DNA of 64,000 nucleotides from a virus (taxonomy: Duplodnaviria; Heunggongvirae; Uroviricota; Caudoviricetes), in IMG/VR virus record IMGVR_UViG_3300029267_003506; one strand, 5' to 3'. Positions 721-48,094 of the stretch are shown here, piece after piece. Each line of letters starts with the position of its first letter. The first letter of the stretch is position 1. The notes below the pieces were generated by a model. It made no database searches. It saw only the letters and a list, made by a program, of their open reading frames with translations, and was not told where the DNA came from. The translations under genes and the position numbers were made by a program.

Positions 721-3077
721 CTCATGCGTCTCCCTACGGCCGAAACTTTCAAATCGGGGTCCTGGTCAACGTCCTTATCTTGCTCAGACGGCTTCTTGTG
801 CTTCTTGCTCCAGGGCTTTTTCAGGTCTTCGCGAGGTGGCTTTTCCTTGGGCTCCGTCTTCTTGTACGAGCCGCCACCCGTATCTTGCATGAGGTCCTTG
901 TCTTTGCGATTCATCTGAAGACCTCGTGCGCCGGTAATCACCATGTCTTCCGCTGCACCGTTCCCTTCCGGTGCCTTTTTGCTCATCACCTTTTCAACCA
1001 ACCTGTCTATTTGCTCGGGAGAAAGCGTGGAAGAGTCGTTCTCGTCCTGACCCATCAAGAAGGCGGAGGCGACGCGTTCCTCGGCTGCACGACGTTTCTT
1101 GGCTTTCGGTCTTCCTTTCTTGCGGCGCGTGCGTTCCTCCTTCCGTTGCTTCTGTATGGTTTTCTTGCTGGGTTTTGTCCTACTCTTTGTGGCGACAGCG
1201 GAAGGATTAGACAACAACTCGTGAAAAAGCGTTCGTGTGGTCATTCCTTTTTCAATGGCTTTGGTGAGTTCCATGTTGCCGCTCATTAAGCCATCCAAGC
1301 CCTTCAAAACACGTTCGTTGACCTGCGAGGGCGTCTCTCCTGTTTTTTCCGCTACAGCCTCTACGGACTGCATGTGCTGCTTTTCGTCTGGTTCCTTCGG
1401 GTTCACCTTCTCAAGCGATTTTTTGGCTTCCGTGGTCTGTTTTTCGGTAACCTCTGGTGGGTTGCCGGTCCTTGGAGTTTTGAGCCCGAATTGTTTCAAG
1501 ACACCTTCGAAGAATTTCCGAGCATCCATGGTACCAGTGCTGGAATCTCTGGAGTCAATCCCTATCTTATCAATGGCATCCAGATCCTCCGCTGACATTT
1601 TTCGAGTCGCCTCTTCGAATTGCCCACTGAGTCCCGACCATTTTGCCATTGTTGCAGCAAGGTTCATTTCCGGACGCTTCTTCAAGGCGCTCCGGATCTC
1701 CTTGAGGCTCATCGGCTTCTTCTCAGGTTTTGCTTCCGGCTTTGCTTCCGCTTCTGGTTTTGCTTCCGCTTCTGGTTTTGCTTCCGGCTTCTTCTCAGGT
1801 TTTGCTTCCGGCTTTGCTTCCGCTTCTGGTTTTGCTTCCGGCTTCTTCTCAGGTTTTGCTTCCGGCTTCTTCTCAGGTTTTACTTCCGGCTTTGCTTCCG
1901 CTTCTGGTTTTTCCTCCGGCTTCATCTCCCGACCCATGCCTTTGTTGAATTTTTCCAGGTCGCTTCGAAAAACAGCAGCCTCGTCCTCGTCACCTCGCTC
2001 AGTAGCCGCGTCAATCTGCTTCTGGATAGCCGCCTCTACTTCGTCCGGGCTATGCTTCTCCAGTGGATTCTCATCACCAGGAAAATAGTTCTTGGCGATA
2101 CCTTCAGCCGTCTGTTCCTTTGGCTTCTGTGCGGCAGGAGCCTTCCATGTCTGACCCGCCTTCACCTTCTCGGAAAGCCTTTTTTTGGCTGCTTCTGGAA
2201 GATCACCAAAGCGGTAACTCTTGCCCGTTTTCGCATTGGTCATGATAGTGTCATCGCCAATTGGATAGTCACTTTCCGCCTTGGTAAATCCTTTGTCTGT
2301 CATGGCTTTTTCATCAGACAAGTCGAGCGGGTTGTCTTTGTCATACCAATCCGGAGATGGTCGGTCGAGTGCCTTCATTTCTGACTGCGACGGCTGCTTG
2401 CCCGACTCAGGCTTGACTTTCTCTTTCTGAGAGACTTTTCCTGGCTCCGTCTTCTGATAGACGACCTTTCCGGTCTCTGTATTTTTCCAGCCGGGCAATC
2501 CCTTCTTGTTTTTCGTCTTCATTGGTTGCCACTTCGCCAGCATCATCCGGGCAACCTCGATGTATGCGCTTGCAGCCTTGTCGATTTCCTGCTCTGACGC
2601 TTCTTTTACCGGCGTTCTTCCCGGCTTCGCATAAAGAAGCGCCATCACCATGTCAATCAGATCCCTCACCAAGGCAACCTCATCACCCGGGGTCTCACTA
2701 GGTTTCTTTGCCGGTTTGGGACTCTCCGCCTCTGTCTCGTCGCCCAGTCCCTCTACTACTGCCTTCCCGTCAAAGGTTCCCTCGCCGGCAGCCTCTTCCT
2801 GCTTTTCCTTGGGTTCGAGTTGGTCAAATTGCTTCTGGATATCCCTAGCCACCGCGTCATCGTAGCCCTTGGCTAACTCGTTCAAGCTACTTGCCACGTC
2901 AGCAATGTTGTCTTTCGTTACCTCGGCATCCCAATTGACGTCTTCTGCAGCCGTTCGGATGACAAGAGAACCGAGTCCCGCCTTTTCCAGGACACGATCA
3001 AGGATCTGGCTCTGATTAGCATTCGTCAGCCAGTCAACGGCACTCATGCGCACCAATGCTGATGTAATTTCGCTCAC
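717..3077 (-). CDS. large acidic head-module protein with (KPEA)n tandem repeats; possibly scaffold or minor head protein
   Basis: 786-aa ORF immediately after the putative portal. Low-complexity EAKPEKKPEAKPE... run encoded by DNA tandem repeats at about 1730..1920. The function is inferred from position only. Confidence 0.5.
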   Translation of the reverse strand: MSEITSALVRMSAVDWLTNANQSQILDRVLEKAGLGSLVIRTAAEDVNWDAEVTKDNIADVASSLNELAKGYDDAVARDIQKQFDQLEPKEKQEEAAGEGTFDGKAVVEGLGDETEAESPKPAKKPSETPGDEVALVRDLIDMVMALLYAKPGRTPVKEASEQEIDKAASAYIEVARMMLAKWQPMKTKNKKGLPGWKNTETGKVVYQKTEPGKVSQKEKVKPESGKQPSQSEMKALDRPSPDWYDKDNPLDLSDEKAMTDKGFTKAESDYPIGDDTIMTNAKTGKSYRFGDLPEAAKKRLSEKVKAGQTWKAPAAQKPKEQTAEGIAKNYFPGDENPLEKHSPDEVEAAIQKQIDAATERGDEDEAAVFRSDLEKFNKGMGREMKPEEKPEAEAKPEVKPEKKPEAKPEKKPEAKPEAEAKPEAKPEKKPEAKPEAEAKPEAEAKPEAKPEKKPMSLKEIRSALKKRPEMNLAATMAKWSGLSGQFEEATRKMSAEDLDAIDKIGIDSRDSSTGTMDARKFFEGVLKQFGLKTPRTGNPPEVTEKQTTEAKKSLEKVNPKEPDEKQHMQSVEAVAEKTGETPSQVNERVLKGLDGLMSGNMELTKAIEKGMTTRTLFHELLSNPSAVATKSRTKPSKKTIQKQRKEERTRRKKGRPKAKKRRAAEERVASAFLMGQDENDSSTLSPEQIDRLVEKVMSKKAPEGNGAAEDMVITGARGLQMNRKDKDLMQDTGGGSYKKTEPKEKPPREDLKKPWSKKHKKPSEQDKDVDQDPDLKVSAVGRRMR
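1730..1920. repeat. degenerate 12/24-bp tandem repeats encoding (KPEA/KPEK)n
   Basis: GGTTTTGCTTCCGGCTTTGCTTCCGCTTCT... periodic repeats inside gene 717..3077. Confidence 0.7.
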
Positions 3078-5089
3078 GACACTCCAGCCCCCGCCAACTC
3101 CTCAACCACTTCCCTGACTTCTCCCTCGTCCGCGTCCTCCGGCAATTCCTCTGCAATGCTCGTTGCCATCTCATCCAACGCAGATTCCTCTTCTGCCGCA
3201 GGTTCCTCCGCACCGAACCCACCCTCAAAGCCTCCACCGAATCCGCTCTCTCCGAATTCACCCTCGCCCTCACCTTGGGGCGCGGACACTTTGAGACCCA
3301 GGTACTTGCCAACCTTGTCCACGACGTCGGAACGCTCCACAAGCGCACGACCCACCTCGTCATCCACGTTCTCAATGGTACGATTGAAATTCGGGTCCTT
3401 GACCGTGAAAAGTTGCTCCTTGATTTTTTCATGAATGTAATCACTATCAAGATTGAACAACTCGTAGAGCACGTCGATATCCATAGAACCTTTCTGGTAG
3501 AGTTGAAACAGGTTCTCGAAGACCTCCTGATTATCCCTAATGCTCAAGCGGTTAAAGGCAACTCGCGGATACCAATATTTGCGCACGCCGTATCTCGTGT
3601 CCTCATACCACTTGTGCGCCTCTGCCACCGGCCGGAACAAACTCCGCTCCACATAACGCTGAAGCATCTGACGAGTGAGCAAAAAGATAGTGTTCAGGAT
3701 CTCAACAGTAATCCGATTGCCGCTATACGTGCCTTCGCCAGTCAACAACTCCCTCGTCACCCCCAACCCAGCGAATACCTGATTCTCGATCATCTCATAT
3801 TCGCTGGCAAGATCAAGCAAGCGAGCATCAGCGCCAATCTGCTCCCAATCCCACTCGTAGTTCGTGACTACAGAGTATTCAGGGTCCATGTAGGACAAGT
3901 CGATTTGAGCCCGCAATTGTTCAATTTCCGACTCATTCAAACCTGGAGCCGAGATCTTGTTTTTCGGCGTCATGTTTCTCGTAGCCAAGGCAAGTTGCGT
4001 GTAGCGGTAGTTTTCCTTCTGCAGCATGGGGACCAAGACGCGTTCTAACACGGAGGCACCCAAATCCATGTACGGACTGCGACGACGAGCAAAATGATAC
4101 GCAAAGGAACCAGGTCTGCCTCCAGCCATGGGATCGGTATCCATGACGATACAATCCTGCTCCCTTATCATCTTCACGACCTCGGGAGGGATATTCTTGA
4201 CCAGTGTTTTCATCATTTCAACTCGACTACATGCCGCCTTGTCTTCCTGCGGCACATCGTAACCTGTCACATCAGCCGATGCCTTGACAATTTGCATCAG
4301 TTTTTCAGGACGATACTCAATGCGTGCGTTATCACTGAACGGATAGGTAAAACAATTTACCTCTTCCGGCGGCAGCATCACAATTTTGTTCCATCGCTTC
4401 TCTTTCGCGGACCACTCATGAAAGAGGAAGGAGTTTCCGATCATGTTCCATTCCCACAAGATTTCCTGCAGGCGCTCAAAAAGATTCAAATTCTCGCACA
4501 TGTCCTGAAAGAATTCATAGATTTCGTTTTTGAGTCCTTTCTTCGGTATCTTGGGCATGTTCAGTGTGATTTTGCTCATCGGCAGGTCAGACAGCAACTC
4601 CAACGCCCGTCCAACATAAGCATCCGTTCTTGAGAAGTACCTATACCATTCGTACTTCTCACGGAGGCTAACGGGCCAGTAGAGAACGCCCCCGTTTTGC
4701 TGGTTCATCATCACAAAATAGGTCGGAACATCACGAACGCCGCCTCCATAGAGCGTATTTCCAGAGGCGTAACTTGTGTGATATGCATCGAGAGACGAAC
4801 TGCCCCAAAGGCCATCCATCCCCGTGGATTGACTCATCATCATTCCGGCAGTACGCATTCTCGGAAGCCCAGAAGCGATTAAACCGTTCTTTTCGCGGAC
4901 AGCAGCAATGCGTGCCTTGACATCATTTACCGGTCCACGCTGGAGTCCCGGGGAGGGAATGCCACCAATAGCGTCATCAGTTCGCGCAGAGGCTTCGGAC
5001 AATGCCTGTTCTACTGCCGCGTCCCGAAGCGTCGCTGTGCGTTTTCTCTGCGGGGTTCTTCTCTTCACCGGTGTTTTCCTCTTCGCCAT
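3074..5089 (-). CDS. putative portal protein
   Basis: 671-aa ORF two genes downstream of the large terminase. Size and acidic Gly-rich C-terminal tail (GEGEGEFGESGFGGG...) fit a portal. No specific motif was recognised. Confidence 0.5.
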   Translation of the reverse strand: MAKRKTPVKRRTPQRKRTATLRDAAVEQALSEASARTDDAIGGIPSPGLQRGPVNDVKARIAAVREKNGLIASGLPRMRTAGMMMSQSTGMDGLWGSSSLDAYHTSYASGNTLYGGGVRDVPTYFVMMNQQNGGVLYWPVSLREKYEWYRYFSRTDAYVGRALELLSDLPMSKITLNMPKIPKKGLKNEIYEFFQDMCENLNLFERLQEILWEWNMIGNSFLFHEWSAKEKRWNKIVMLPPEEVNCFTYPFSDNARIEYRPEKLMQIVKASADVTGYDVPQEDKAACSRVEMMKTLVKNIPPEVVKMIREQDCIVMDTDPMAGGRPGSFAYHFARRRSPYMDLGASVLERVLVPMLQKENYRYTQLALATRNMTPKNKISAPGLNESEIEQLRAQIDLSYMDPEYSVVTNYEWDWEQIGADARLLDLASEYEMIENQVFAGLGVTRELLTGEGTYSGNRITVEILNTIFLLTRQMLQRYVERSLFRPVAEAHKWYEDTRYGVRKYWYPRVAFNRLSIRDNQEVFENLFQLYQKGSMDIDVLYELFNLDSDYIHEKIKEQLFTVKDPNFNRTIENVDDEVGRALVERSDVVDKVGKYLGLKVSAPQGEGEGEFGESGFGGGFEGGFGAEEPAAEEESALDEMATSIAEELPEDADEGEVREVVEELAGAGVS

Positions 5090-5744: not shown

Positions 5745-7586
5745 CTAAACAAATCGCGTCCGCGTGTGGCTTCTTTCTACCCTCCTCGGATGCGCGCCGT
5801 GCATTCTGGACTGCGCTCGTTGGTGATTTTTCATCGCCATTGTCATTCCACGACTTCCAATTGCCGCTGCGCCGGCTCCTCCTGTCAGATTCGTGTTTTT
5901 TGGACCGTCAGCACCATACGCCTCAAAAATGGCTCGGGCGCAAGCATCGGCGAGGTCATCGTGCGCACCTCGCTTGTTAGGAGCCCGCACTTCTATCCTG
6001 GCTTTGGATTTGCGTTCAGCCTCCAACCCTAGAATCTCGGATTCCAGCGTTTCATCATCGTAAAACTCGATCATCTGTTCACTATACAAAGTCTTGAACA
6101 GTTGATAGGTGTCGCTGTTCATCCTGTCTGTCACTTGCTCCATGCGAAATTGCTTCAAGCCCATGGAGTGCAGGATTTCCAGAAGCGAATATCCATTCCA
6201 TTGATCAAACCACCCAGACTTGATTGGAAACCAGCGACACAAATTCTTAATCTCTTCGGCAATAAGAGCCACTGGAATCACGTCGTGTTCGGCATATTTA
6301 TTGCAACCCTTATAGATGTTGTTGGAAACCTCCCACACGTCAGAGGAGCCCGAGAACCAGACTTGCGCCCAATCCACGATAATGCGTGAGGGAGTGCCGG
6401 CAAACACCTTCCCCCGGCGATTGATGCCCTGTTCGCGGTGACAAATGACAATTGCTGTGCCGTCGTTCTTGACGCCCAGGTCAACACCCATGAAATAGTC
6501 TGTTCCCGTCTGTCCGCGCACCGGCTTGGGACGACCTCTAACGATGCACGCTTTGAATTTATCTTCGTCATCAACCCAACTTGTGACCTTATCGCTGAAC
6601 TCACCAGCGTACTCGGTCATGAAGCCAATGCGATCCCTCTGACGTTCCGCACGGAGAAACGCAGACGGAATGGTTGGATTGACGAGGGATGAATACATCT
6701 GAAACATGATAGTATTTTCACACTGATTGAAACTATCAACATACAAGTCCCAAAACTGTCCGTATTTGGCATAGGGAGAACTGATACCTACCATCTTGCC
6801 GTCGCCCTTGAACGAGCCAATGGAGGGTTTCAGAGCCTTGTAAACCTCGGAGCCAGAAAATCGACCGTTGTTGTCGATGAAGTGCGCCATCTCGTCCATC
6901 ACGACCACGATATTGTTATGCCCGCGCAGGCTGTTAGAAGCACAACCACCAGCCAAGGACATGATGCTAGCCCGGCGCTTTTTACTCGGAAGGTTGCGAT
7001 CAGAATCAGTTTGCACGTTGAAATAGGTCAGCGTTTGATTCACTATCCGGTCACGCAAGAAAGGGCAACCGAGAACGTTCTTCTGCAGCATATTGAAGAC
7101 AATGCTGGCTTGGTCATCAGTCGGCGCAACGTTCGTGATGGCGACAGTGGTGTCGGGGGGGAACCCGTAGAAAGCCGAAGGGTCGCCCCTTTTGACGAGT
7201 TTGTACACCTCGTAGCAAGAGATACAAGAGGCTATTGTTGACTTGCCACTTCGCCTGCCCATGACCAGAATGAGTTCGGTATACGGAGCCTCGATGATTT
7301 CTCGGCTGTTGCAACGACCTTCCTCATAAAGCCACTTCAGGAACTCAACCTCGGTAAATTCGTAGAGTATCTTGTCATTGATGATATTCGGGACCTGGAT
7401 GCTACGTTCCTGATTATCTAATGGGAGCCCGTAATACACCTTGAGTACGCACTTTTGGACCGGGAAAAGCGTCAGATTGAGACCCCATGGAGCCTCCACA
7501 AACGTAATCACGTCGGCTACATCCGTCGTGTTTCCGGAAAGAAACTCCTCGGTGAGTTCGTCCATGAAGTCGTTTTTTTTAGTCAT
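5745..7586 (-). CDS. terL: terminase large subunit
   Basis: Walker A (VMGRRSGKST), Walker B (VVVMDEMAHF), and a C-terminal RNase-H-like nuclease region (GVDLGVKNDGTAIVICH). 613 aa. Confidence 0.85.
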   Translation of the reverse strand: MTKKNDFMDELTEEFLSGNTTDVADVITFVEAPWGLNLTLFPVQKCVLKVYYGLPLDNQERSIQVPNIINDKILYEFTEVEFLKWLYEEGRCNSREIIEAPYTELILVMGRRSGKSTIASCISCYEVYKLVKRGDPSAFYGFPPDTTVAITNVAPTDDQASIVFNMLQKNVLGCPFLRDRIVNQTLTYFNVQTDSDRNLPSKKRRASIMSLAGGCASNSLRGHNNIVVVMDEMAHFIDNNGRFSGSEVYKALKPSIGSFKGDGKMVGISSPYAKYGQFWDLYVDSFNQCENTIMFQMYSSLVNPTIPSAFLRAERQRDRIGFMTEYAGEFSDKVTSWVDDEDKFKACIVRGRPKPVRGQTGTDYFMGVDLGVKNDGTAIVICHREQGINRRGKVFAGTPSRIIVDWAQVWFSGSSDVWEVSNNIYKGCNKYAEHDVIPVALIAEEIKNLCRWFPIKSGWFDQWNGYSLLEILHSMGLKQFRMEQVTDRMNSDTYQLFKTLYSEQMIEFYDDETLESEILGLEAERKSKARIEVRAPNKRGAHDDLADACARAIFEAYGADGPKNTNLTGGAGAAAIGSRGMTMAMKNHQRAQSRMHGAHPRRVERSHTRTRFV

Positions 7587-12993: not shown

Positions 12994-14307
12994 TCAGGCA
13001 ACTTTTGCCTTATTATCTTCAATCTTGATGTATCTTCCCCACTTGTAAGGAAACCGGTCACGCGTCAGTTCGGTAGTCAGCACCCACAAGATAGGAATAT
13101 TATACCGCCTGTCGATGTGAGGCGCATAAAAATCGGTGAAATAAATAAGCGCGTCGTATTTTCCTTCTGTTTCCTTCAAGACCGGTTCCAAGTCCGTACC
13201 GCCGCGACCATGTATCTCTCCGGTGAACTTACCCTTGAATTTGTAGACCGCCTGGATATCGGCGTCGGCTTCGTAGACGGTCACAATAGAACCATTGCGC
13301 CATATCCAGCGAACCTCATTAAAGAACAACACCAACTGCGAATCGCTAATTGACCCGCTTGTATCGACGGCTACGGCAAGGTTGAGCACGTCTTCTTTTC
13401 GCGTGCCCGGTCGCGTACCGAAACGCTTACTTACGCGTTTCATCGTGTAATCCAAACTTGATTCCGTAGCACTCGCGGCGAAGTTCCGGAGCACCTTATT
13501 CCAGGGGACAATGGGTCGTCTTTTCTTGAACAAATCCTCTATCTGCTCGATTACCGCCCCTGGTATGTCACCGTACTCCTTACCAACGAGTTCCCGGGCT
13601 TTGCTGACGAGGTCTTTGCAAAATTCCTTCAGCAATGGGTCCTGCGCCGCTCGGTCCCACATTTCATGCGACCCAGACATATCCAGATCACCACCTTTTC
13701 CCTGTTTTCCACCTTTTCCCTGTTCTTCCTGTTTTCCCTGTTTTCCGCCTATTCCCTGTTTTCCGCCTTTTCCTTTGCTTTGTTGTTTTTGATTTCCCAT
13801 ATGAACGGCCAGTGTTTCATCCGCCAACTGCTTTTGGTAGTGCTCATTATCCACCAAGTGCGTGTAGTACCACATGGCGCTTTTGCCCTGCGCAAGGTTG
13901 TAGTCATTCGGAAAACAACAACCAGGAGGGAGGTGCTGCTCAGGAAGGTAGGAATTGACCGCCAAATCCACAGCCACAGCGCCGCGTGTTTTATCGTAGA
14001 ATTGGAGACTCAGGTGGTCAAAGACAATGTGTAAAACCTCGTGCTCCAGGATACAGCCTAGCCATTGTCTGGCCTGCTCGCTGTTTGCGGCTCTTTTCCA
14101 AATTTCCCGCACGAACTGCTCGTTTACACAAAGTTTTATCAAGAGATCATTGGCTTCCTTCCCGACTCCCATGGTCGGTATTCCCCATTTTTCGGCATTA
14201 TACACTTTGGGTATCTGTTGAAGTATGTGCCCGTAAAACAACTTGTGCCGAATCAAATCGACCGAGCCCCGCATCACCTCTCTTTTCACGTTAATATCGG
14301 GCATCAT
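12994..14307 (-). CDS. zincin-like (HEVLH) N-domain plus von Willebrand factor A domain protein (DUF2201-like architecture)
   Basis: HExxH motif (ILEHEVLHIVFDH). vWA MIDAS motif DxSGS (VAVDTSGSISDS). Gly/Lys/Gln-rich low-complexity linker between the two domains. Confidence 0.7.
   Translation of the reverse strand: MMPDINVKREVMRGSVDLIRHKLFYGHILQQIPKVYNAEKWGIPTMGVGKEANDLLIKLCVNEQFVREIWKRAANSEQARQWLGCILEHEVLHIVFDHLSLQFYDKTRGAVAVDLAVNSYLPEQHLPPGCCFPNDYNLAQGKSAMWYYTHLVDNEHYQKQLADETLAVHMGNQKQQSKGKGGKQGIGGKQGKQEEQGKGGKQGKGGDLDMSGSHEMWDRAAQDPLLKEFCKDLVSKARELVGKEYGDIPGAVIEQIEDLFKKRRPIVPWNKVLRNFAASATESSLDYTMKRVSKRFGTRPGTRKEDVLNLAVAVDTSGSISDSQLVLFFNEVRWIWRNGSIVTVYEADADIQAVYKFKGKFTGEIHGRGGTDLEPVLKETEGKYDALIYFTDFYAPHIDRRYNIPILWVLTTELTRDRFPYKWGRYIKIEDNKAKVA
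13686..13800. repeat. degenerate tandem repeats (CCTGTTTTCC-like) encoding the GKQGKGG linker
   Basis: Periodic CCCTGTTTTCC/ACCTTTTCC units inside vWA gene 12994..14307. Confidence 0.6.
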
Positions 14308-18301: not shown

Positions 18302-19642
18302 TTAGTCAAACATTTCTAAGATCAACCCGCGCAATGCTGAATTATTGAGAAGCCACTTCTGATTTCTACCGTCCGCATCTGCACGCCTGGAGAGACGATT
18401 GCAAAGCGCATGACGACAATCTTCAGGGATGTGCTGGTTGGTGATAAACCTCTGAAAATTCTCAATGCGTTCGGGAGTTTGCTTGGTGCTTGGGTCAACC
18501 ATGGTCCCGAACAAGCGCTCTATCATGACACCGAGAATGTCACTACGCGGTTCGTGTTTGTCGCTGGACATCAGTTCACACAACCGTGCGGCTACGTCCG
18601 TCCGACCATCCAAAATATCTTCGGGCTCGACTATGTCCTCCATCTTGCGAGTGCAGAAGACGATAAAAGCGGTGACAGTTTCTTCGTCCAACAACGAATG
18701 AGCATGGAGCATTGCCTGCTTCCGAGCGTCCTCGTTCTGAAGGTTGCCAATGGCTGTCAGTTTCCGAAAGAAATGAGAAAGCGTCCGCAGATTCGTCCGT
18801 TCCTTGCCGTGCATCATTTCGGGCTGATATAACACCCACGAAATCCCGCGATGGTCAAGTTTTTGCTTCGCTGCCCACTCTGCCCACAGTTTGGCATCTT
18901 CAACCAGCGTGACGTGCTCGATGCGCGTTAGAATGGCTTTGTCAATGGTTGTGACCAGGTAATTCTGTTCGTCCGGGTTGCCAGTCAAAACAATATTGCA
19001 GCCCGCCGGGAGCGACCACGATACCATGCCGTAGTTTTGCAGAAGTTGCATGATACCCTTGATGATGCGAATGCTGGCGCGATTCCAGTCATCCAACAGC
19101 AAAATCGCAGGTCCTGGTTTCAAAGGAACCCAGTCAGGAGGAGCCATGATGGTACGGGGCTGAATGCTGGTGTCTACTTCCCAGCCGTCGTCTCGGAACG
19201 CCGCAATGGTCATCTCGTTCTGCGGCACCCATTGTTCTTCGCTCTCGGAATCGCCGTCTCGTCTCCGGCGCATCATGAGGCTATCCATAGGAATGCCGTG
19301 AAGGTCGCCCATCTCCTCGAACTGCGCAATCGGAACGTCATGCACGTCCCATCCAGGGTATTGTTTTCCACGCCATTCTACCGGCGTTTCGCGGAGTTGC
19401 TTGATAATTGAGGTCTTGCCCGTCCCTGGATGTCCCCACACACACTGAGCAATGCGCGGATTGCCGGCTTCTTCTTCGATGTCGTTAAAGCGAAAATTCG
19501 TAGTCAGAAAGTCAACAAGCCTATCCGCCTTGACCTGTAGACCATAGCAGCCTTCGTAGGTGCGCTCGTACTCGTTGAGCCGCTTGTCGTCGTTCGTTCC
19601 CATTCCCTTCCTTTCATTCACTTTCCGGTTGTTACCACTCAA
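18302..19642 (-). CDS. AAA+ ATPase, MoxR/CobS-like
   Basis: Walker A VWGHPGTGKTSI. Walker B ILLLDDWNR. Confidence 0.65.
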   Translation of the reverse strand: MSGNNRKVNERKGMGTNDDKRLNEYERTYEGCYGLQVKADRLVDFLTTNFRFNDIEEEAGNPRIAQCVWGHPGTGKTSIIKQLRETPVEWRGKQYPGWDVHDVPIAQFEEMGDLHGIPMDSLMMRRRRDGDSESEEQWVPQNEMTIAAFRDDGWEVDTSIQPRTIMAPPDWVPLKPGPAILLLDDWNRASIRIIKGIMQLLQNYGMVSWSLPAGCNIVLTGNPDEQNYLVTTIDKAILTRIEHVTLVEDAKLWAEWAAKQKLDHRGISWVLYQPEMMHGKERTNLRTLSHFFRKLTAIGNLQNEDARKQAMLHAHSLLDEETVTAFIVFCTRKMEDIVEPEDILDGRTDVAARLCELMSSDKHEPRSDILGVMIERLFGTMVDPSTKQTPERIENFQRFITNQHIPEDCRHALCNRLSRRADADGRNQKWLLNNSALRGLILEMFD

Positions 19643-22403: not shown

Positions 22404-23639
22404 TCAAACGTAATCCATGTCGGAATCGTCCGCCGCACTCTTCAGCACGTCAATACCGAAGATTTGCATTGCCTGCTCATTGTACACAGCCAGTTCGCCG
22501 CCGGGAACATTCGGATCTGGACTGTCATCCACAAGTTTCCCAAAGACCGCGTCATGCAACGCCCAAGCGATATCTTCGTCGTATTCCCGGTAGAGGTCGC
22601 AAACGCTCACGATGAGGCGCGTTGAGAATGGGGTTGTCACTTCTCCCTGTCGTTTGAGATTCCGTATGGCGTCACGGAACCGGAGCAACTTGCGGACCAT
22701 GCTGTCATTGCCGATCTTTTCTCGCAAGATCGATTCTTCAGCGCGGCGGTTATACCCGTAGTGAAAAATCGCGTCAATACGGTCAAGGGTACTGTCGTCT
22801 AGTGCGTCTCCCTGCGCCACGTAGCCTGCATCCCGCGTACTGAGGATCCCCCTCCCAATCGTATTGCCCAGCAACACAATCCGGAATCCACTGTGGCTCG
22901 TTACTACCCGAGCGCCATCAGCGTCAACCCGGATCTGCCGCCGTGGACTGAAGTTGTCAAGCAGGTTATTCAACCCTATGGCAATCCAACTCGGTATCAT
23001 CGGAAATTCGTCAACAACCAGGAGGGCTGGATTCCCAACTTCGTTGCCTTTTTCGTCAAGACCGCACTTCATGGCGCGGATGACAGGTCCTTCGAGAAAT
23101 TTGATGATACTCTGTTCCGTCTTCTCGTCTACCTCAATGGTTTTCTCGCCAATAAACGAAGCGGTGTCCATGTCCCGCTTGCAGTTGATGAGTTCTAGTT
23201 CCATGTTCAATTCTTCAGCCATCAGCCGCATATGTGTGGTCTTCCCACACCCGGTCGGACCCACGCCGCACACCACCAAGGACGAAGGGCTCTGAATGAG
23301 TTTTTTCATGCGCTGATGCAGGCGTGGCTTGATGTAGGTGTGCTGAATCTTCTTTTTGGACGTCCTTTTCTTGCCTCGTTCTTTTTGTCGCCCCTCTGAG
23401 TGAGTTCCCGAGATGGCAAAGAGCCGGACAGTTTTCGTCGTGTCGTAAATGTCCACAACGATGCTGTCTGCCCCTTTGACAAGACAGCGACGAACTTTGG
23501 ATTTCCGGAGTACGTCAAAGTGGTCGGCAACAACAGGATCGTCCCACCCCACCTCAACAGTTCCGTGTTCAGCAACGAGTTTTTTGACTGCCTCGACTAC
23601 TCGTTGCTCCTCATCTGTAAGACTGGCTTTTGTGGGCAT
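22404..23639 (-). CDS. AAA+ ATPase, MoxR/CbbQ-like (AAA_5-type)
   Basis: Walker A VVCGVGPTGCGKTT. Walker B LLVVDEFPM. Sensor-1-like RIVLLGNT. Confidence 0.75.
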   Translation of the reverse strand: MPTKASLTDEEQRVVEAVKKLVAEHGTVEVGWDDPVVADHFDVLRKSKVRRCLVKGADSIVVDIYDTTKTVRLFAISGTHSEGRQKERGKKRTSKKKIQHTYIKPRLHQRMKKLIQSPSSLVVCGVGPTGCGKTTHMRLMAEELNMELELINCKRDMDTASFIGEKTIEVDEKTEQSIIKFLEGPVIRAMKCGLDEKGNEVGNPALLVVDEFPMIPSWIAIGLNNLLDNFSPRRQIRVDADGARVVTSHSGFRIVLLGNTIGRGILSTRDAGYVAQGDALDDSTLDRIDAIFHYGYNRRAEESILREKIGNDSMVRKLLRFRDAIRNLKRQGEVTTPFSTRLIVSVCDLYREYDEDIAWALHDAVFGKLVDDSPDPNVPGGELAVYNEQAMQIFGIDVLKSAADDSDMDYV

Positions 23640-25320: not shown

Positions 25321-27183
25321 CTACGCCCTGAAACGACCTCTTGTGATGATGTCCGCAAACCGACGGAAGAAATCTTGTCCCATTTGTCGCTCATCTTTCA
25401 GGTAGACAAAATAATCCCTCCCGTAAAACTTCCTCGGTTCTATTGTGCGCACACCGAACCCATATACCTCGACTCCCGCTCTTCGACTGCGCTCACAAAC
25501 GTACTTGAGAAACTGACCCATTTCCTGCTCGTTGTTATGTCCTGCTTCGGGACAACCATCGCTCAAACTGAAAATGATCCTACGGCGCTCTCGGCACGTA
25601 GACAAGCGCGCGACAGCCATCTCAATTGCCTCACAGTCCACATTGTGCTTGAAGGCTGAAATGCGAACTATGCGTGTTTTGACGGCTTCCCATCTCTCGG
25701 TGAAGGTCTTATAAATACGCAACCTGAGAGGGTTTGTTCGATCATAGCCCGGAATTAGTAACTTTCTGGGAATTTCGCCGCCAAAGTATTTCGTGGTACT
25801 TCCGACAATCTCAAAGCGAACCCCCAGTTTGTTCAGGGTCTCCCCCAACGCCGCAACAAGCCGCTGCATGGCGTATCGTGAAGCAGACATCGAAGCGCTT
25901 TCGTCCACAATAATGACTACCGCTGTATCCAATTTCTCACCGTCTCGAACCTGGTAAAAGACCCGTTTGTCCAATCCGGCTGCCGCATCCACAAGCCGCC
26001 GCATGTCAAGTTTTCCGCGTCGCATGTATTGTTCCTTACGAGAGCGACTAAGTGTGCGGAGAGCCTGGTCCAGTGCTCGACTGATACCCATAATGCTGTT
26101 TGCCACTTCTTCGCGGACTGCGTTGAACTGAGCCACACTGGTGCTATCGGGCACCTCGTATGCGTCGTTTTCCCTAATACTGCGATAGCGACGATCTGCC
26201 TCGGGAACTTCGTCGATTTGCGCTTCAAGTTCGCGCCGCAGGAATTCTCCCAGGTCCTCGCCTTCTGCCTCCTTCTCAAGCGCACCAGCAACCTCTTCGT
26301 CTGTTCGATCATCCTTCGTGTTTTCGACCTGTCCACTTGTTTCGTTGTCTGTACTCTCGCCTTCCCTGGGGTCCGCTGTTGCTGTCTCCTTCCCTTGTTG
26401 TCCCTCTTGTTGTCCCTCTTGTTGTCCCTCTTGTTGTCCCTCTTGTTGTCCCTCTTGTTGTCCCTCTTGTTGTCCCTTTTGTTCCCCTTGTTCCCCTTGT
26501 CCTTGCTGCTCTTTCTTTATTGCCTTAATGATGTCGTAAATCTTTCTGGCGATCACCAGGCAATCCCCTGTGGATTCTGCTCCACGCACCTCTTGGTATG
26601 TCTCATAGGCAGCGCTGATGTACTCTGCCGCGAGCCCCTCAGCGCGCCATGCCAACCGCGCCCCCTTGCACATTATCTCCATGGCGCATGCGGCTTCCCA
26701 AAGTGGAATCTCAACGGTTTCCCCACGTTGCACTTGTCCTGCAATTTTCTTGTTGTGGTAGTCCCGGCTCCAGTTGAAAACCACCCGGCAGCCTTCGTAT
26801 TTTCTTGCACCCTTCGCTTCAATTCGGTAATCATCCAGAGAATTCAAAATTGTCTTCAGAGCCTTGTTCTCACGGATTTCCTCCCACTGAGACTCCGAGA
26901 GATGGCTGTGAGCAATGTGGAGTACCTCGTGATAGTAGTAAGCCCGTGCCAACATAAGATCCTGTAGACCGTTGAGTGGCGGCATGAAAATGGTGCGGGT
27001 TTTCACATTGGCACAAGGGGGATTGCCGGGAGCCACATGCTTGATGGTTACCCTACCGTCCCGGCACATGTGTGGGATGATTACTTTGAGGGCACGCTCG
27101 ACCTCCTGAACGGCTTTGAGTTGTTTTTGCCGCTCAACATAGCGAGCATTCTTCTTGCTGTGTTTCGTCGTTGTGGCGCTCAT
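25321..27183 (-). CDS. zincin-like (HEVLH) N-domain plus vWA domain protein with (QEGQQ)n linker
   Basis: HExxH (YYHEVLHIAHSH). vWA MIDAS VIIVDESASMSAS. Low-complexity QEGQQ repeats. Confidence 0.7.
   Translation of the reverse strand: MSATTTKHSKKNARYVERQKQLKAVQEVERALKVIIPHMCRDGRVTIKHVAPGNPPCANVKTRTIFMPPLNGLQDLMLARAYYYHEVLHIAHSHLSESQWEEIRENKALKTILNSLDDYRIEAKGARKYEGCRVVFNWSRDYHNKKIAGQVQRGETVEIPLWEAACAMEIMCKGARLAWRAEGLAAEYISAAYETYQEVRGAESTGDCLVIARKIYDIIKAIKKEQQGQGEQGEQKGQQEGQQEGQQEGQQEGQQEGQQEGQQGKETATADPREGESTDNETSGQVENTKDDRTDEEVAGALEKEAEGEDLGEFLRRELEAQIDEVPEADRRYRSIRENDAYEVPDSTSVAQFNAVREEVANSIMGISRALDQALRTLSRSRKEQYMRRGKLDMRRLVDAAAGLDKRVFYQVRDGEKLDTAVVIIVDESASMSASRYAMQRLVAALGETLNKLGVRFEIVGSTTKYFGGEIPRKLLIPGYDRTNPLRLRIYKTFTERWEAVKTRIVRISAFKHNVDCEAIEMAVARLSTCRERRRIIFSLSDGCPEAGHNNEQEMGQFLKYVCERSRRAGVEVYGFGVRTIEPRKFYGRDYFVYLKDERQMGQDFFRRFADIITRGRFRA
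26390..26480. repeat. 15-bp tandem repeat (CCCTCTTGTTGTCCC x about 6) encoding (QEGQQ)n
   Basis: Perfect tandem copies inside vWA-zincin gene 25321..27183. Confidence 0.8.
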
Positions 27184-30165: not shown

Positions 30166-31101
30166 TTACAGCAATGTTAACTGAACCATTGGCTTCTGCC
30201 TGCTCTTGCTCGCCTCCCGGTATAAGTCGAAAAGCCTGCTTGCCTCTGTTTTCAGCCCTGCATCACGAGACAAACCGGGGCTGAGTCGTCGTTCGTCAAG
30301 TGAGAGCCACTCACTGTCAAAATAAACTCTCCACTTCCCATATTTCAACCACTCATTCGAACCAGGGCGCAATGCCAATACGCGCCTGAGTTGGCTGTAA
30401 AACTCTTTGCGCGGCGCTTCGTTATAGAAAGCGCATTTATCAGCAAATGGACAAACATGACAACGCGCATGAAAACCACAAACATCCTGCCCGAAGTCTA
30501 CGAACGAACGGGAAAAATGCCCCAACTTCTCTGATCTGGTGTGCCTTCTAATTTCACGCTCAATTTTATAGTCACCTCCGCTCGGCTTGACGATTCCCAT
30601 TCGCTTTGTTATGCGCCGCACGTGAAGGTCAATGCCAAACTCCTCCTCGCCAAAGATAGTTGCCATCATGATGCTCGCGATATGTTTTCCGACTCCTGGC
30701 AATGATTCTAGTCCTGCTCGGCTAGACGGGACCTCGCCTCGTCGTTTGGCAACTTGGCGGGACAAACCAACAACAAAGTCAGCCTTTCGGTCAGCAAACT
30801 TGATCCTGGCTTTTTGGAGCGTCGCAGCCACTTGCGTTTGGTCAGCGTGTCCTAACTCATAAGCATCCTGGAAATCGCGGAACAGCGGCTCGATAGCCCT
30901 GAATGCAGCCTCTTCACTGCTGCCGCCGGTAAGGACAGTTTTAACAATGTGCCGCCAAGCCCATCTCATCGGTTTTTGGAAAGAGTGATTTCTCAGGTTT
31001 GCGCCCACTGGAATCTTGCCCTCTTGAGAAAGACCAAAATGCCAACGTCGCCACGGATATAGATGCGTCAGTTTTTCGCTGAGATGTTCGATGAGGTTCA
31101 T
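30166..31101 (-). CDS. HhH-GPD DNA glycosylase, endonuclease III-like, with [4Fe-4S] cluster loop
   Basis: LESLPGVGKHIASIMMA...GIDLHV (HhH motif plus Asp). C-terminal CGFHARCHVCPFADKC. Confidence 0.6.
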   Translation of the reverse strand: MNLIEHLSEKLTHLYPWRRWHFGLSQEGKIPVGANLRNHSFQKPMRWAWRHIVKTVLTGGSSEEAAFRAIEPLFRDFQDAYELGHADQTQVAATLQKARIKFADRKADFVVGLSRQVAKRRGEVPSSRAGLESLPGVGKHIASIMMATIFGEEEFGIDLHVRRITKRMGIVKPSGGDYKIEREIRRHTRSEKLGHFSRSFVDFGQDVCGFHARCHVCPFADKCAFYNEAPRKEFYSQLRRVLALRPGSNEWLKYGKWRVYFDSEWLSLDERRLSPGLSRDAGLKTEASRLFDLYREASKSRQKPMVQLTLL

Positions 31102-31451
31102 TCTTCGTCCTCATCTTGGGGCTCTTGAAAACGCAGGTGCCAGGCGTCCTCTGGCATCTCTTCAGCATGTTTTATTGTCCACCCATATACGCACCGATCA
31201 GATTCTGCGATTTGTAACGTGGATGCATCCCGGCGTACACACAAGACGCCTCTCTCGCAGGCAGGACACTCTCTCTTCCACCGCGACGTACCATCCGCGC
31301 TGCCTAAATCAACGTGCCGAACATGTTGGGGCGGCTCAGAAATCCTCGATCCTGCTATTTTTTCGTCCACTGCAATACCCTCCTCAAAGAAAGCCCCGCC
31401 GGAAAACCAGCGGGGCTCAGAAAATCGCGTGTTTTCCGGCAAGAATCTCAA
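31098..31451 (-). CDS. hypothetical protein
   Basis: 117-aa ORF with 4-nt overlaps to both neighbours. Confidence 0.35.
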   Translation of the reverse strand: MRFLPENTRFSEPRWFSGGAFFEEGIAVDEKIAGSRISEPPQHVRHVDLGSADGTSRWKRECPACERGVLCVRRDASTLQIAESDRCVYGWTIKHAEEMPEDAWHLRFQEPQDEDEE

Positions 31452-32551
31452 TTATCGTTCTGCATCTGCGATGTCGGTGCGCTCATTCGTGGCGCGTCCA
31501 ACCCAAAGAGAAACTGGCTTCCTTGCGGCAGAATCTGAGACGGCACGTTCCCGTTCCACTTCTCTGCCGCGATAAGTGCCGCCTTAGCCCGCATCTTCTC
31601 GATTTCCAGGCGCACCTGTTTAATACGTTCCTCAGCAGCCGCCGCAAATGCCTTGGCTGCTCTTGCTGACGCCTCGGCCATTTCAACCTCTTTCTTGTTG
31701 ACCTCCGCTTGTGCCAGACGCTCTTGGCGCTTTGCCTCGACTTTCATCTCTTCTTCATAAGCGTGGTCAATAGCGTCTTGAATTCTCTGGTTGTGATAGG
31801 TCAAGCCACCGACAATACCGACGTTCTCTACGGTCACGCCCCTGGATGAGAAATCCTCCTTCACTTCCTTCAGCATGATCTCCGTAATATCTCGCTTGTC
31901 GGTCTTACAATCTTTCAGAAGCCGGCTGCCAAACTCACGAGACAAAATAGCCGCCACAGCCCCGCGCACATTGGTGTCGATAACCTGCGCCAATGACTTC
32001 CCCGGATAGTAGTAGAGAAACCTGGATGCATCCTTCTCGGTCACAAACGCCGTGATGTTAATACCCACGCCGAACGAAATGCTATCTTTCGACTCTACGT
32101 CAATATCCTGTTTGGTGGTGTCGCTACCGGTCTGCATAGAGGCTGTCCATTCCCGCGTCACTGGTGTTCTGTTCACCCGAATCACGCGCACGGTCGGCAC
32201 CCACTCAAAATCCCCCAGGCTTGGCCAGCGTCCTGTCGTCTTTTTGCGCAATGGGATGTTGATGCGTTTGGTTGCTACCTTTGCTGCCTCAAGATATTCC
32301 ACCGAGCCGAATTTTCCCTGGACGGTTTTGTTTGCGCCCTCCAGAGGCACCACAAAGGCTGTCTCGTATGGCTGGATTTCTTCAAACCTCTCCACGCACG
32401 GAGGTCCCATCAACGAAGCAATAATCAACCACGCTACAATTCCCACCACCACAATCCCAACCAAAATCCCAATCACCTTAGTCACTTGCTTCTCCCTTCT
32501 CTTCATCCTTCTTGTCGATGTCCCACGCAGACACCGCCTTCGATAAGACAC
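31448..32551 (-). CDS. SPFH/band-7 (stomatin/prohibitin-like) membrane protein
   Basis: N-terminal TM helix, SPFH core, and a long coiled-coil C-terminus (EAKRQERLAQAEVNKKEVEMAEASARAAKAFAAAAEE). Confidence 0.65.
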   Translation of the reverse strand: MSYRRRCLRGTSTRRMKRREKQVTKVIGILVGIVVVGIVAWLIIASLMGPPCVERFEEIQPYETAFVVPLEGANKTVQGKFGSVEYLEAAKVATKRINIPLRKKTTGRWPSLGDFEWVPTVRVIRVNRTPVTREWTASMQTGSDTTKQDIDVESKDSISFGVGINITAFVTEKDASRFLYYYPGKSLAQVIDTNVRGAVAAILSREFGSRLLKDCKTDKRDITEIMLKEVKEDFSSRGVTVENVGIVGGLTYHNQRIQDAIDHAYEEEMKVEAKRQERLAQAEVNKKEVEMAEASARAAKAFAAAAEERIKQVRLEIEKMRAKAALIAAEKWNGNVPSQILPQGSQFLFGLDAPRMSAPTSQMQNDN

Positions 32552-44107: not shown

Positions 44108-44147
44108 AAAAAGGGCTAATTCCCACATAGGAATTAGCCCTTTTCTT
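44105..44147. terminator. bidirectional intrinsic terminator
   Basis: AGGGCTAATTCC-CACATAG-GGAATTAGCCCT 12-bp stem, flanked by A5 and TTTTCTT. Confidence 0.65.
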
Positions 44148-44722: not shown

Positions 44723-44911
44723 TTACGCCCCGGATTCCATGAGATGTTCCAGCAAGAACGGACAATCTATCGGCACATCACGCTCGTCATATGGTTCCTT
44801 GGCTTTCAAACACTCTGCTCTCGCTCGCAGGCGCTCGTTCATGCACCGAAGCCAACGAGCCTCTTTGCACCTGTTGCAAACCATAAGATTGTGGTGGACT
44901 TGACTTTCCAT
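44723..44911 (-). CDS. small Cys-rich protein, CPFxLEHL family
   Basis: CNRC...C...DCPFLLEHLM C-terminal motif shared with three paralogs. Confidence 0.45.
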   Translation of the reverse strand: MESQVHHNLMVCNRCKEARWLRCMNERLRARAECLKAKEPYDERDVPIDCPFLLEHLMESGA

Positions 44912-45025: not shown

Positions 45026-45193
45026 ATGAAAGCCGTGCTGATTGACGTTCGCAACAAACAAATCCGGGATGTGCATTGCGACGGTACGCTCGAAAACATC
45101 TACTCCCTCACAGGCTGCAGGCTCATCCAACCGCTGGACAGAAAGGAAATGAAGTTTGGGAGTGGTGTAGCCAAGAAACTGGTCAATGCTTAG
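45026..45193 (+). CDS. small hypothetical protein
   Basis: 55-aa ORF, too short for the ORF track. RBS AAGGAGGAA. Preceded by GAGACCGGTTATAAGG. Confidence 0.35.
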   Translation: MKAVLIDVRNKQIRDVHCDGTLENIYSLTGCRLIQPLDRKEMKFGSGVAKKLVNA

Positions 45194-45206
45194 AAAGGGT
45201 AAAACC

Positions 45207-45683
45207 ATGGGATATGAAACGCACATTGTTATAGGTTTCCTTGGAGATCCTGTACCAGAACTGGCAAAAGATTTGACTAACCCATATGAAGATGGGTCTG
45301 GGTATCCATATAAAAAGGATAAAGCCGGAAACCCAATCAAGACGGGGCGTATGCAACGATACTTGATGCCTGCTGTGCATCTTGACCTTAGCAAAATCGA
45401 CTATAGCAACCTCGACTTGTTGCATGATAAGTACCTTAAGGTCACCGAAGAAAATCAAAATGAGTTTGTGTATTTTTATCACAGTGACAGGTGTACCGAG
45501 TTTTCTGAAGACAACTATGGCGATCCACTTGTCTTGGTTCCTTTCAAGGATGTCTTAGAGGCGGTGCGCACTGACGTGCAGAACAGCGATTATCGCCGCT
45601 TTCGGTGGTTGCTGGGACTGATGGAAGCCATGGCACTAACCGATAACTCAAAACACCTGGTATGCGTCTTCTATGGAACGTGA
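45207..45683 (+). CDS. hypothetical protein
   Basis: Start MGYETH with RBS AAGGG. Confidence 0.45.
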   Translation: MGYETHIVIGFLGDPVPELAKDLTNPYEDGSGYPYKKDKAGNPIKTGRMQRYLMPAVHLDLSKIDYSNLDLLHDKYLKVTEENQNEFVYFYHSDRCTEFSEDNYGDPLVLVPFKDVLEAVRTDVQNSDYRRFRWLLGLMEAMALTDNSKHLVCVFYGT

Positions 45684-45918
45684 TAACATTACACAAGAGG
45701 CTTTTCTCCACTCCGAAACGCAGGGCTTTCTTGCCCGGTTTTCGCCTCGCCCTATTCTGGAGAGCGCTCTGATTCTTGGCACGGACCCTAAAACCGGAGA
45801 AGCCACCGACACAACTCTCAACGCAAACGACATCGAGGTTCAGTTCCTAAAATTCGACACTGCGCCCGAGCCACCGCCAGCCATTTTCCTGGTTTTGGAG
45901 GATGACCAAGATGCCTGA
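45673..45918 (+). CDS. hypothetical protein
   Basis: 81-aa ORF. Confidence 0.4.
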   Translation: MERDNITQEAFLHSETQGFLARFSPRPILESALILGTDPKTGEATDTTLNANDIEVQFLKFDTAPEPPPAIFLVLEDDQDA

Positions 45919-46252
45919 CACGAAAACAGCCCCGGAAACCGTACCCAAATGCCACGGTAACTACGACAGCCGTTTTTCCTGCGAGGACTGCGGATTCCAG
46001 CAAAGTTGCCGCAAAAGCCGCGCGTTTGTGCAGCACATACAATCCATTGCACAATGCTACGGCGAATACGAACCGGAAAACCAAAATTGCGAACAATGCT
46101 TACTTGTGGAGCACTGTCAATCCGCCACAGACGGCTGTCCCCGGGAACACTGCGGAATAGAGACGGGAACGCTTGCCGGTCTGAAATCCGCAATTGAGGC
46201 GTCCACCGCAGAAACACCGTTCTTCCTGGAACCGCCCAAAGGCGTATCCTGA
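45902..46252 (+). CDS. Cys-rich hypothetical protein
   Basis: CHGNYDSRFSCEDCGFQQSC...CEQC...C. Confidence 0.45.
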   Translation: MTKMPDTKTAPETVPKCHGNYDSRFSCEDCGFQQSCRKSRAFVQHIQSIAQCYGEYEPENQNCEQCLLVEHCQSATDGCPREHCGIETGTLAGLKSAIEASTAETPFFLEPPKGVS

Positions 46253-46283
46253 CAATTTGAAGCCTTTTAGAAAGGAAAGAACC

Positions 46284-46631
46284 ATGGAACTCGTCATCAC
46301 GGCTGTCCCCACAAACGAGAACCGCATACCAGCCATCAAAGCGCTCCGCGAAGTCACTAATCTGGGGCTCAAGGATTCAAAACTCATCATTGACTCGGTC
46401 GCAGCCGGTGAAACACGGCAAATCTCCCTCAACAAGGAAAAAGCCACCCGAGCGACAACAACACTCCACAACGCCGGCTTCACCTTCTCCACCTACGACC
46501 CAAGTGACGACATTATCCAACACATCAAGGCAGCCATCCAATTGGCAACTCAGCGAGAAATGCCTTCCGTGCTGCCGCATCTCACCGTGGCTTTTGCAAA
46601 AGCGCTTGAACTGAAAGAACAAATCACATGA
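46284..46631 (+). CDS. ribosomal protein L7/L12 C-terminal-domain homolog (stand-alone CTD)
   Basis: IPAIKALREVTNLGLKDSKLIIDSVAAGE...LNKEKATRATTTLHNAGFTF aligns with the bL12 CTD ([26 protein letters not shown]...). No N-terminal dimerisation or L10-binding domain. Confidence 0.6.
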   Translation: MELVITAVPTNENRIPAIKALREVTNLGLKDSKLIIDSVAAGETRQISLNKEKATRATTTLHNAGFTFSTYDPSDDIIQHIKAAIQLATQREMPSVLPHLTVAFAKALELKEQIT

Positions 46632-46840
46632 AATATCTCATTTGGAGCATCGAGCACAATGCCTGGTGGGCTCCCAACTCGCGGGGATACTCAACCGAAC
46701 TCAGCGGAGCCGGTATCTACGAACGGAACGAGGCGAGTAAAATCATCCGAGGCGCAAACAGGTGCGGCGAAACCAACGAATGTATGATTCCGGTCGCCGC
46801 GATGCTCTCTGGGCTCCACGCAGAAACAGAAACAGAGTAG
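46628..46840 (+). CDS. hypothetical protein
   Basis: 70-aa ORF. Confidence 0.4.
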   Translation: MKYLIWSIEHNAWWAPNSRGYSTELSGAGIYERNEASKIIRGANRCGETNECMIPVAAMLSGLHAETETE

Positions 46841-47009: not shown

Positions 47010-47189
47010 TCACGAGCCCGGCGTTCGCTTCATCAGGTGTTCAAGCACGAAAGGACACCAGGACGGCAATTCCTCCGGTTTCCTCGCGATAACTCTCACT
47101 GTGCCATCTGCCTCTCGCAAGTGCTTCCTTTTGAAACACCTGTGGGCACGGCGGCAATGTTTCTTGCACAACTCATAATCCGGCTTCAT
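47010..47189 (-). CDS. small Cys/His-rich protein, CPFxLEHL family
   Basis: MKPDYELCKKHCRRAHRC...SWCPFVLEHLM, not in the ORF track. The ATG sits 6 nt downstream of TGATATAAT, implying a leaderless transcript. Confidence 0.4.
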   Translation of the reverse strand: MKPDYELCKKHCRRAHRCFKRKHLREADGTVRVIARKPEELPSWCPFVLEHLMKRTPGS

Positions 47190-47204: not shown

Positions 47205-47301
47205 CCTCAGCGCGACACCGGACACAAAAAATGATCCCCACTCTTGCGAGCAGGGATCACGTGAGGAGAACAGCCGCTGGGAGAGGCTGGTTCCGTGAAT
47301 T

Positions 47302-47924: not shown

Positions 47925-48094
47925 TTTCTCGGTTCAACTCAATTTGCACTTCATCTGATTCTTCTTCGCCGCACCTGTTTCGCAAGATGCGCTGAACGGA
48001 GTATAGCATACTCAGCAGCGTATTACATGACCGAATGACTTGCGTTTCCGAGGTGGGCTCATCGGTCAAGTCTGACACACTCATCGCACACCTC

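Follow-up and report, generated by a model that had tools for sequence, protein, structure and literature searches.

What use would a tailed phage have for a single domain of a ribosomal protein? The stretch of phage DNA analysed here (64,000 nucleotides, referred to as the window) encodes a protein of 115 aa, MELVITAVPTNENRIPAIKALREVTNLGLKDSKLIIDSVAAGETRQISLNKEKATRATTTLHNAGFTFSTYDPSDDIIQHIKAAIQLATQREMPSVLPHLTVAFAKALELKEQIT, that resembles one part of ribosomal protein bL12, its C-terminal domain (CTD). Helices 4 and 5 of the bL12 CTD bear a conserved site with positive charge, by which IF2, EF-Tu, EF-G, and RF3 are recruited (PMC6753160). That phages carry ribosomal-protein domains is one of the few signs of direct phage interference with translation. 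For no phage bL12-domain protein has a function been demonstrated, and the 115-aa protein is a clean minimal case and a convenient construct for binding questions.

Viral genomes have been searched with ribosomal-protein profiles (Mizuno et al. 2019, Nat Commun 10:752; PMC6375957). In that study "bL12" was reported, by way of the Ribosomal_L12 domain, from seven cultured phages and many uncultivated ones. Some phages, RSB3 among them, have a protein taken up entirely by the domain; more often the domain lies inside larger unrelated polypeptides. The phage domains occur in widely different genomic contexts and were attributed to multiple independent acquisitions. Purified 70S ribosomes yielded a single peptide from a phage bL12-domain protein of 418 aa. 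Affinity purification through the tagged form of this protein failed, which the authors read as a weak or transient contact (PMC6375957). Beyond this study and a roseophage annotation paper, no literature on the function of phage bL12 domains was found.

The gene and its reading frame

The window belongs to a tailed phage, as identified by a portal gene (phrog_16240; 3074-5089, minus strand) and a large terminase gene (phrog_2/9; 5745-7586, minus strand), both assigned with PHROGs. The bL12-like ORF (46284..46631, plus strand) lies within a plus-strand cassette of small genes that extends over approximately 45.0-46.8 kb between minus-strand blocks. Its ATG at 46284 is preceded, 7 nt upstream, by the Shine-Dalgarno-like sequence GAAAGGAAAG (46270..46279, plus strand). 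The start context TTAGAAAGG..ACCATGG is found again at 45190-45210, 1.08 kb upstream, before another gene of the cassette. At the other end, the TGA stop codon (46629..46631, plus strand) overlaps the ATG of the next ORF in the form ATGA, which suggests translational coupling of the two genes.

The reading frame is well supported. An independent gene call on a metagenome contig returned the same 115 aa, and the identical protein is present on 8 metagenomic contigs, the longest of which is 132.5 kb. The bL12 CTD peptides quoted in the first-pass annotation of this DNA are present in the translation of the ORF.

Similarity to the bL12 C-terminal domain

The protein matches the Pfam family PF00542 (Ribosomal_L12) at 37.2 bits (E=3.8e-9), where the gathering score is 25.9, and the alignment places residues 5-65 on profile positions 5-61 of 67. 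When the 115-aa protein was used to search the sequences of the PDB, the ten best matches were all bL12 chains. Judged by sequence, the relationship to the bL12 CTD is far beyond chance.

A domain alignment of 27 homologous segments was made with MAFFT, to which a truncated row of the query was added to place beta3. The alignment to the E. coli CTD covers all six secondary-structure elements. The correspondence had at first been described as residue-for-residue, which is nearly right: all six elements do align, and the two departures are 5 residues inserted after helix 5 and 2 residues missing before helix 6. The CTD part of the phage protein has a near-neutral pI of 8.1, compared to the acidic 5.1 of the E. 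coli CTD.

The AlphaFold2 model of the 115-aa protein has a mean pLDDT of 83.4 and a pTM of 0.55, with no segment below 50. Residues 1-72 (46284..46499, plus strand) are predicted to form a complete beta-alpha-alpha-beta-alpha-beta fold composed of beta1 (residues 2-7), alpha4 (11-25), alpha5 (29-40), beta2 (45-48), alpha6 (51-63), and beta3 (67-71). This predicted topology is exactly that of the bL12 CTD. In a Foldseek search of the PDB the structure ranked first is 1ctf, the E. coli L7/L12 CTD, with a probability of 1.00 and a TM score of 0.71 normalised to the target. Isolated bL12 CTDs are stable autonomous domains in solved structures, 1ctf being an example. The concern raised at the outset that the protein might be unfolded without the missing N-domain is answered by the model, which predicts folding at the mean pLDDT given above. 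The original proposal of a bL12 CTD homolog, and with it the expected Ribosomal_L12 profile match, is thus upheld by the Pfam score, by the leading PDB matches, and by the fold.

ClpS, the N-degron adaptor of ClpAP, was considered and rejected as the identity of the domain. Identity to ClpS in structural alignments is 7-16%, against approximately 30% to bL12 CTDs, and no ClpS family of Pfam matches the protein at E<=10. The conserved surface of ClpS differs from that of the 115-aa protein, and ClpS structures appear in the Foldseek ranking of the PDB only below a dozen bL12 chains. A ClpS-like protease adaptor is therefore highly improbable, and so is the idea that a captured piece of rplL survives here as a decaying relic without function. 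Such a relic is at odds with the intact ORF with its ribosome binding site, the well conserved core, the confident model, the structured tail that has been added to the domain, and the presence of related proteins on other phage-like contigs.

The missing N-terminal domain and the C-terminal tail

The ORF opens directly at beta1 of the CTD, with no hinge. The N-terminal family PF16320 (Ribosomal_L12_N) has no match in the 115-aa protein at E<=10 (Pfam), which bears out the earlier statement that the N-terminal dimerisation and L10-binding domain is absent. The upstream ORF has no Pfam match. No second L12-like gene was found in the window: of all its six-frame ORFs, a CTD HMM matches only the one at 46284..46631.

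A ribosomal bL12 ortholog was ruled out by the absence of both the N-domain and the hinge, by the score against the bL12 equivalog TIGR00855 (24.7 bits with a cut-off of 84.4, over profile positions 62-120 of 125 only), and by the absence of an rplJ-rplL operon context; the gene sits in a phage window with a portal and a terminase. Compared to ribosomal bL12 (1ctf, 8yeq), the phage protein is without the N-domain and hinge and is distinguished by the insertion after alpha5, a near-neutral charge, a C-terminal hairpin, and its phage context.

The extra tail of about 45 aa reported by the first-pass annotation is present as residues 73-115 (43 aa; 46500..46628, plus strand). This lineage-specific tail is predicted to be a helical hairpin, with helices at residues 73-90 and 97-114 and block pLDDT values of 82-90 (AlphaFold2). 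The packing of the tail against the domain is uncertain because the pTM is 0.55. The first helix is strongly amphipathic, with a hydrophobic moment of 1.52 versus a shuffle mean of 0.72, and only 1.9% of shuffles reach 1.52. As modelled, the amphipathic helical tail fits an interaction or oligomerisation element.

An exhaustive phmmer search of 1.84 billion representative proteins gave no credible match to residues 73-115; beyond residue 84, similarity is confined to weak stretches of 4-11 bits in P0007, a protein with 15 repeats. Searched alone at E<=10, the tail has no match in Pfam or among the sequences of the PDB. Overall, the 115-aa phage protein is predicted to be a folded protein in which a complete domain of bL12-CTD fold (residues 1-71) leads directly, with no hinge between them, into a unique helical hairpin (73-114).

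The hairpin could take the place of the N-terminal hairpin of bL12 by a swap in domain order, form dimers, and attach to the ribosome at the uL10 helix or some other site, so that the protein would act as a ribosome-associated stalk substitute. We regard such a substitute as quite unlikely, and equally so its consequence, a phage-specific head on the host stalk. In size the two elements agree, as the bL12 N-domain is roughly as large as the 43-aa tail with its two helices. In addition, a phage bL12-domain protein has been found in 70S fractions (Mizuno 2019, PMC6375957). The substitution is disfavoured by the lack of a hinge and by the lack of similarity between the tail and the N-domain; BLASTP of the tail against the E. 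coli bL12 N-domain returned no alignment.

Relatives of the domain

The exhaustive phmmer search with the whole protein identified 287 proteins at E<=1e-3, and the top matches are not ribosomal bL12. Among the matches listed (the best 149 of the 287), two stand apart, the query and P0144 with its single match; every other one carries 2-15 tandem bL12-CTD-like repeats. A strongly hydrophobic segment of transmembrane type is present in 72 of these best 149, within the first 40 residues in 46 cases. P0003 bears a signal of lipoprotein type, and in P0008 the signal peptide is a classical one. The bacterial tandem-repeat proteins (for example P0002, P0003, P0006, and P0008) have the same domain or helix-hairpin motif (NKI...) outside the ribosome. 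They are cellular, have 2-15 repeats, and are often membrane-anchored or equipped with a signal peptide, whereas the query is a phage protein with a single domain.

The bacterial proteins with 2-15 tandem bL12-CTD-like repeats (P0002-P0150, including P0007) form a large uncharacterised population in their own right. No literature on bacterial bL12-CTD-repeat proteins was found. A binding result for the phage protein would also bear on these non-ribosomal proteins.

The best relatives by per-domain score are P0144 (156 aa; 35.8 bits) and P0018 (320 aa, two domains; 31.4 bits), compared to 19.3 bits for the E. coli bL12 CTD. Both are encoded on phage-like metagenomic contigs that consist of strings of small orphan genes. 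The contig of P0018 also encodes a dCMP deaminase, a match to deoxynucleotide monophosphate kinase, and a nucleoside deoxyribosyltransferase. P0144 and P0018 have in common with the 115-aa protein the continuation "..VD.V..GE....I" after alpha5. They differ from it in that P0144 has an N-terminal region of 85 aa, P0018 has long spacers with its two domains, and neither has the tail of the 115-aa protein.

Because P0144 and P0018 lie on phage-like contigs, a long-standing phage-borne lineage is favoured over a recent accidental capture of host rplL. By the sequence comparisons the domain belongs to a branch of the CTD family that is old, diverged, and carried by phages, and is no recent copy of a host rplL. 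Closer relatives were not detected in the collections searched. Neither megablast of 12 kb around the gene nor tblastn of the 115-aa protein gave a match among 50,697 phage records, no relative of the protein was found in IMG/VR, and a word-indexed search of 5.8 billion proteins retrieved only the protein itself.

The non-ribosomal repeat proteins bring in another explanation. The domain may serve as a generic protein-protein interaction or scaffold module with a non-translational partner, either a phage protein (for example the coupled 70-aa product of the next ORF) or a non-ribosomal target in the host. We consider this possible, if on balance doubtful. It agrees with the non-ribosomal nature of most of the 287 matches and their 2-15 tandem copies, with the TM-like segments in approximately half of the best 149, and with the signal peptides of some. 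In phages the domain has been joined to many unrelated extensions, the PHROGs families that match the motif are all labelled "unknown function", and the fold is common to ClpS, an adaptor. However, no alternative partner is known for any such protein, the GTPase-binding face of bL12 is fully kept, and purified 70S ribosomes have in one case been found to contain a phage bL12-domain protein (PMC6375957).

The helix 4/5 face and its possible partners

Helices alpha4 and alpha5 of the phage protein (residues 11-40; 46314..46403, plus strand) are the equivalent, in the alignment with the E. coli CTD, of the face by which bL12 binds translational GTPases. The residues implicated in E. coli bL12 reportedly include K65, V66, I69, K70, and R73, together with the turn and helix G79-K84 (Kothe 2004; Diaconu 2005; Helgstrand 2007). 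In alpha4 the phage equivalents are R14 (K65), I15 (V66), I18 (I69), K19 (K70), and R22 (R73). In the turn and alpha5 they are G28 (G79), L29 (L80), K30 (K81), D31 (E82), and K33 (K84). All of these contact residues are identical or conservatively replaced, all five basic positions are retained, and the protein conforms to the conserved motif K/R-V/I-x-x-I-K-x-x-R ... G-L-K-E/D-x-K.

Our leading hypothesis, to which we give somewhat less than an even chance, is that the phage protein would be a soluble mimic of the head of the ribosomal stalk. Through its conserved basic and hydrophobic alpha4/alpha5 face (R14, I15, I18, K19, R22, K30, K33) it would capture a client whose usual docking site is the bL12 CTD. 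The likeliest client would be the G domain of a translational GTPase of the host (EF-G, EF-Tu, IF2, RF3). From the helical hairpin would come oligomerisation, which would raise avidity as dimerisation does for bL12, or else attachment to a second partner. The outcome would be that factors are titrated or re-routed, and the protein would not act as a stalk subunit.

A decoy or tether for translational GTPases had been put forward in the first-pass annotation, and is a plausible proposal. It is weakened because the helix 4/5 motif is also kept in the non-ribosomal repeat proteins, some of which are predicted to be exported. Across the whole domain family, nothing is more conserved than the alpha4/alpha5 motif. 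Because all relatives keep the same motif, conservation of helices 4 and 5 is no proof of GTPase binding. Some repeat proteins are predicted to be exported and hence out of the reach of translation factors; therefore the retention of this motif may be structural or may serve another partner.

The isolated bL12 CTD binds factors weakly. Because of this weak binding, a decoy would need high expression or avidity. The near-neutral CTD part, unlike the acidic one of E. coli, also counts against the mimic. A free stalk head in which a hairpin-mediated oligomer presents several CTD faces, and so sequesters host GTPases to reprogramme translation or decoys immune ribonucleases of the Cami1 type, can be envisaged, and we judge this elaboration to be unlikely.

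The immune side of this idea can be taken separately. As an anti-defence decoy, the free stalk head would titrate immune effectors of the host for which the bL12 CTD is the necessary docking point on the way to the ribosome. One such effector would be Cami1, a CRISPR-associated ribonuclease, which is said to be captured by the ribosomal stalk (Mogila et al. 2023). In PDB entry 8phj, the structure of cA4-bound Cami1 on the 70S ribosome, the bL12 CTD chain matches the model of the phage protein (Foldseek), and the neighbours of the gene are small orphan genes, as is typical of loci for counter-defence. The case is purely circumstantial, the cassette has no PADLOC match, and we regard such a decoy as very unlikely. 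No link of phage bL12 domains to defence was found in the literature, and none of Cami1 to bL12 in open-access text. If true, a decoy of the Cami1 type would be a form of counter-defence through ribosomal-protein mimicry.

Comparison with known phage bL12-domain proteins

The 115-aa protein is not the first phage protein to have a bL12 CTD without the rest of bL12. The first-pass annotation had treated a truncated, CTD-only version as a distinct case, and this claim finds no support. The set of Mizuno 2019 was detected by a CTD profile. Ralstonia phage RSB3 ORF10 (98 aa) also begins at the CTD, has no N-domain, and ends in an unrelated tail; its only Pfam match is to PF00542, at positions 6-40 of 67. 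In Streptomyces phage Anedea gp3 the motif is found in the C-terminal half.

Many small phage proteins with the bL12 CTD fold are also present in BFVD. Those named "bL12 C-terminal domain-containing protein" include crAss-like cr50_1 (141 aa) and cr126_1 (308 aa), RSJ5 (92 aa), and Vibrio phage Vp_R1 (64 aa), and those without such a name include cr1_1 (132 aa) and cr10_1 (116 aa). Dinoroseobacter phage DFL12phi1 (106 aa) and roseophage DSS3P2 (107 aa) are further known examples. The CTD-only state is the usual one for phage homologs of bL12, and the class has been described since 2019.

Like the query, the known phage bL12-domain proteins are found in tailed phages among uncharacterised neighbours, match the CTD profile only, are small, and carry an unrelated extension. 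They have no detectable close sequence relationship to the query, as tblastn against the 50,697 phage records gave no match. RSB3 ORF10 and Anedea gp3 keep approximately positions 6-40/45 of PF00542, whereas the query keeps 5-61 of 67, and the hairpin tail of the query is unique. Two features are particular to the 115-aa protein, the near-complete CTD and the unique helical hairpin. By itself, the finding adds one divergent member to the class described in 2019.

The surrounding cassette

Approximately 37 genes were called within 10 kb on either side, and a Pfam match was obtained for the bL12-like gene and one other only (PF28055, VVA0879). The neighbours that were scanned have no match in Pfam or the PDB and no function in PHROGs. 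The cassette is made up of small orphan genes of the kind that phages use for host takeover.

The downstream ORF (46628..46840, plus strand) encodes 70 aa and has a homolog with 46% identity, a hypothetical protein of Erythrobacter phage ZS04, which is the only link of the cassette to a cultured phage. The 70-aa product could be a partner of the bL12-like protein. The upstream ORF (45902-46252, plus strand; 113-116 aa) is rich in Cys, with approximately 12 residues that include several C-x2-C pairs, and from this composition its product may bind metal. It has no PHROG or PDB match, as it has none in Pfam.

Two further Cys-rich ORFs flank the cassette at 44723-44911 and 47010-47189, both on the minus strand and of 62 and 59 aa. 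They have in common the C-terminal sequence CPF[LV]LEHLM (BLASTP E=1e-5) and may be paralogs.

No sigma-70-like promoter was found in the interval 43.9-48.1 kb. Two strong terminator-like hairpins on the minus strand flank the cassette at 44108-44145 and 47231-47260, with stems of 17 bp and 13 bp followed by T runs. A perfect 16-nt inverted repeat, AAACAGGTGCGGCGAA, is located at 46756-46771 and 47965-47980, with its arms 1.2 kb apart. By a rough estimate, chance alone would give approximately 0.003 such repeats per 5 kb. The pentapeptide NRCGE is encoded by each arm, the two small ORFs concerned being different and on opposite strands.

Elsewhere in the window, the minus strand encodes an unusually large HNH endonuclease of 437 aa (phrog_1314; 12994-14307), an ATPase of MoxR type (phrog_1297; 18302-19642), a protein that matches phrog_249 ("porphyrin biosynthesis") and weakly an ATPase PHROG (22404-23639), and a CobT/vWA-like protein (25321-27183). 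The phrog_1297 ATPase, the phrog_249 protein, and the CobT-like protein may together constitute a chaperone module of the MoxR/vWA type. Also encoded on the minus strand are a protein similar to HhH-GPD base-excision glycosylases (30166-31101) and an SPFH/Band 7 protein (31448-32551).
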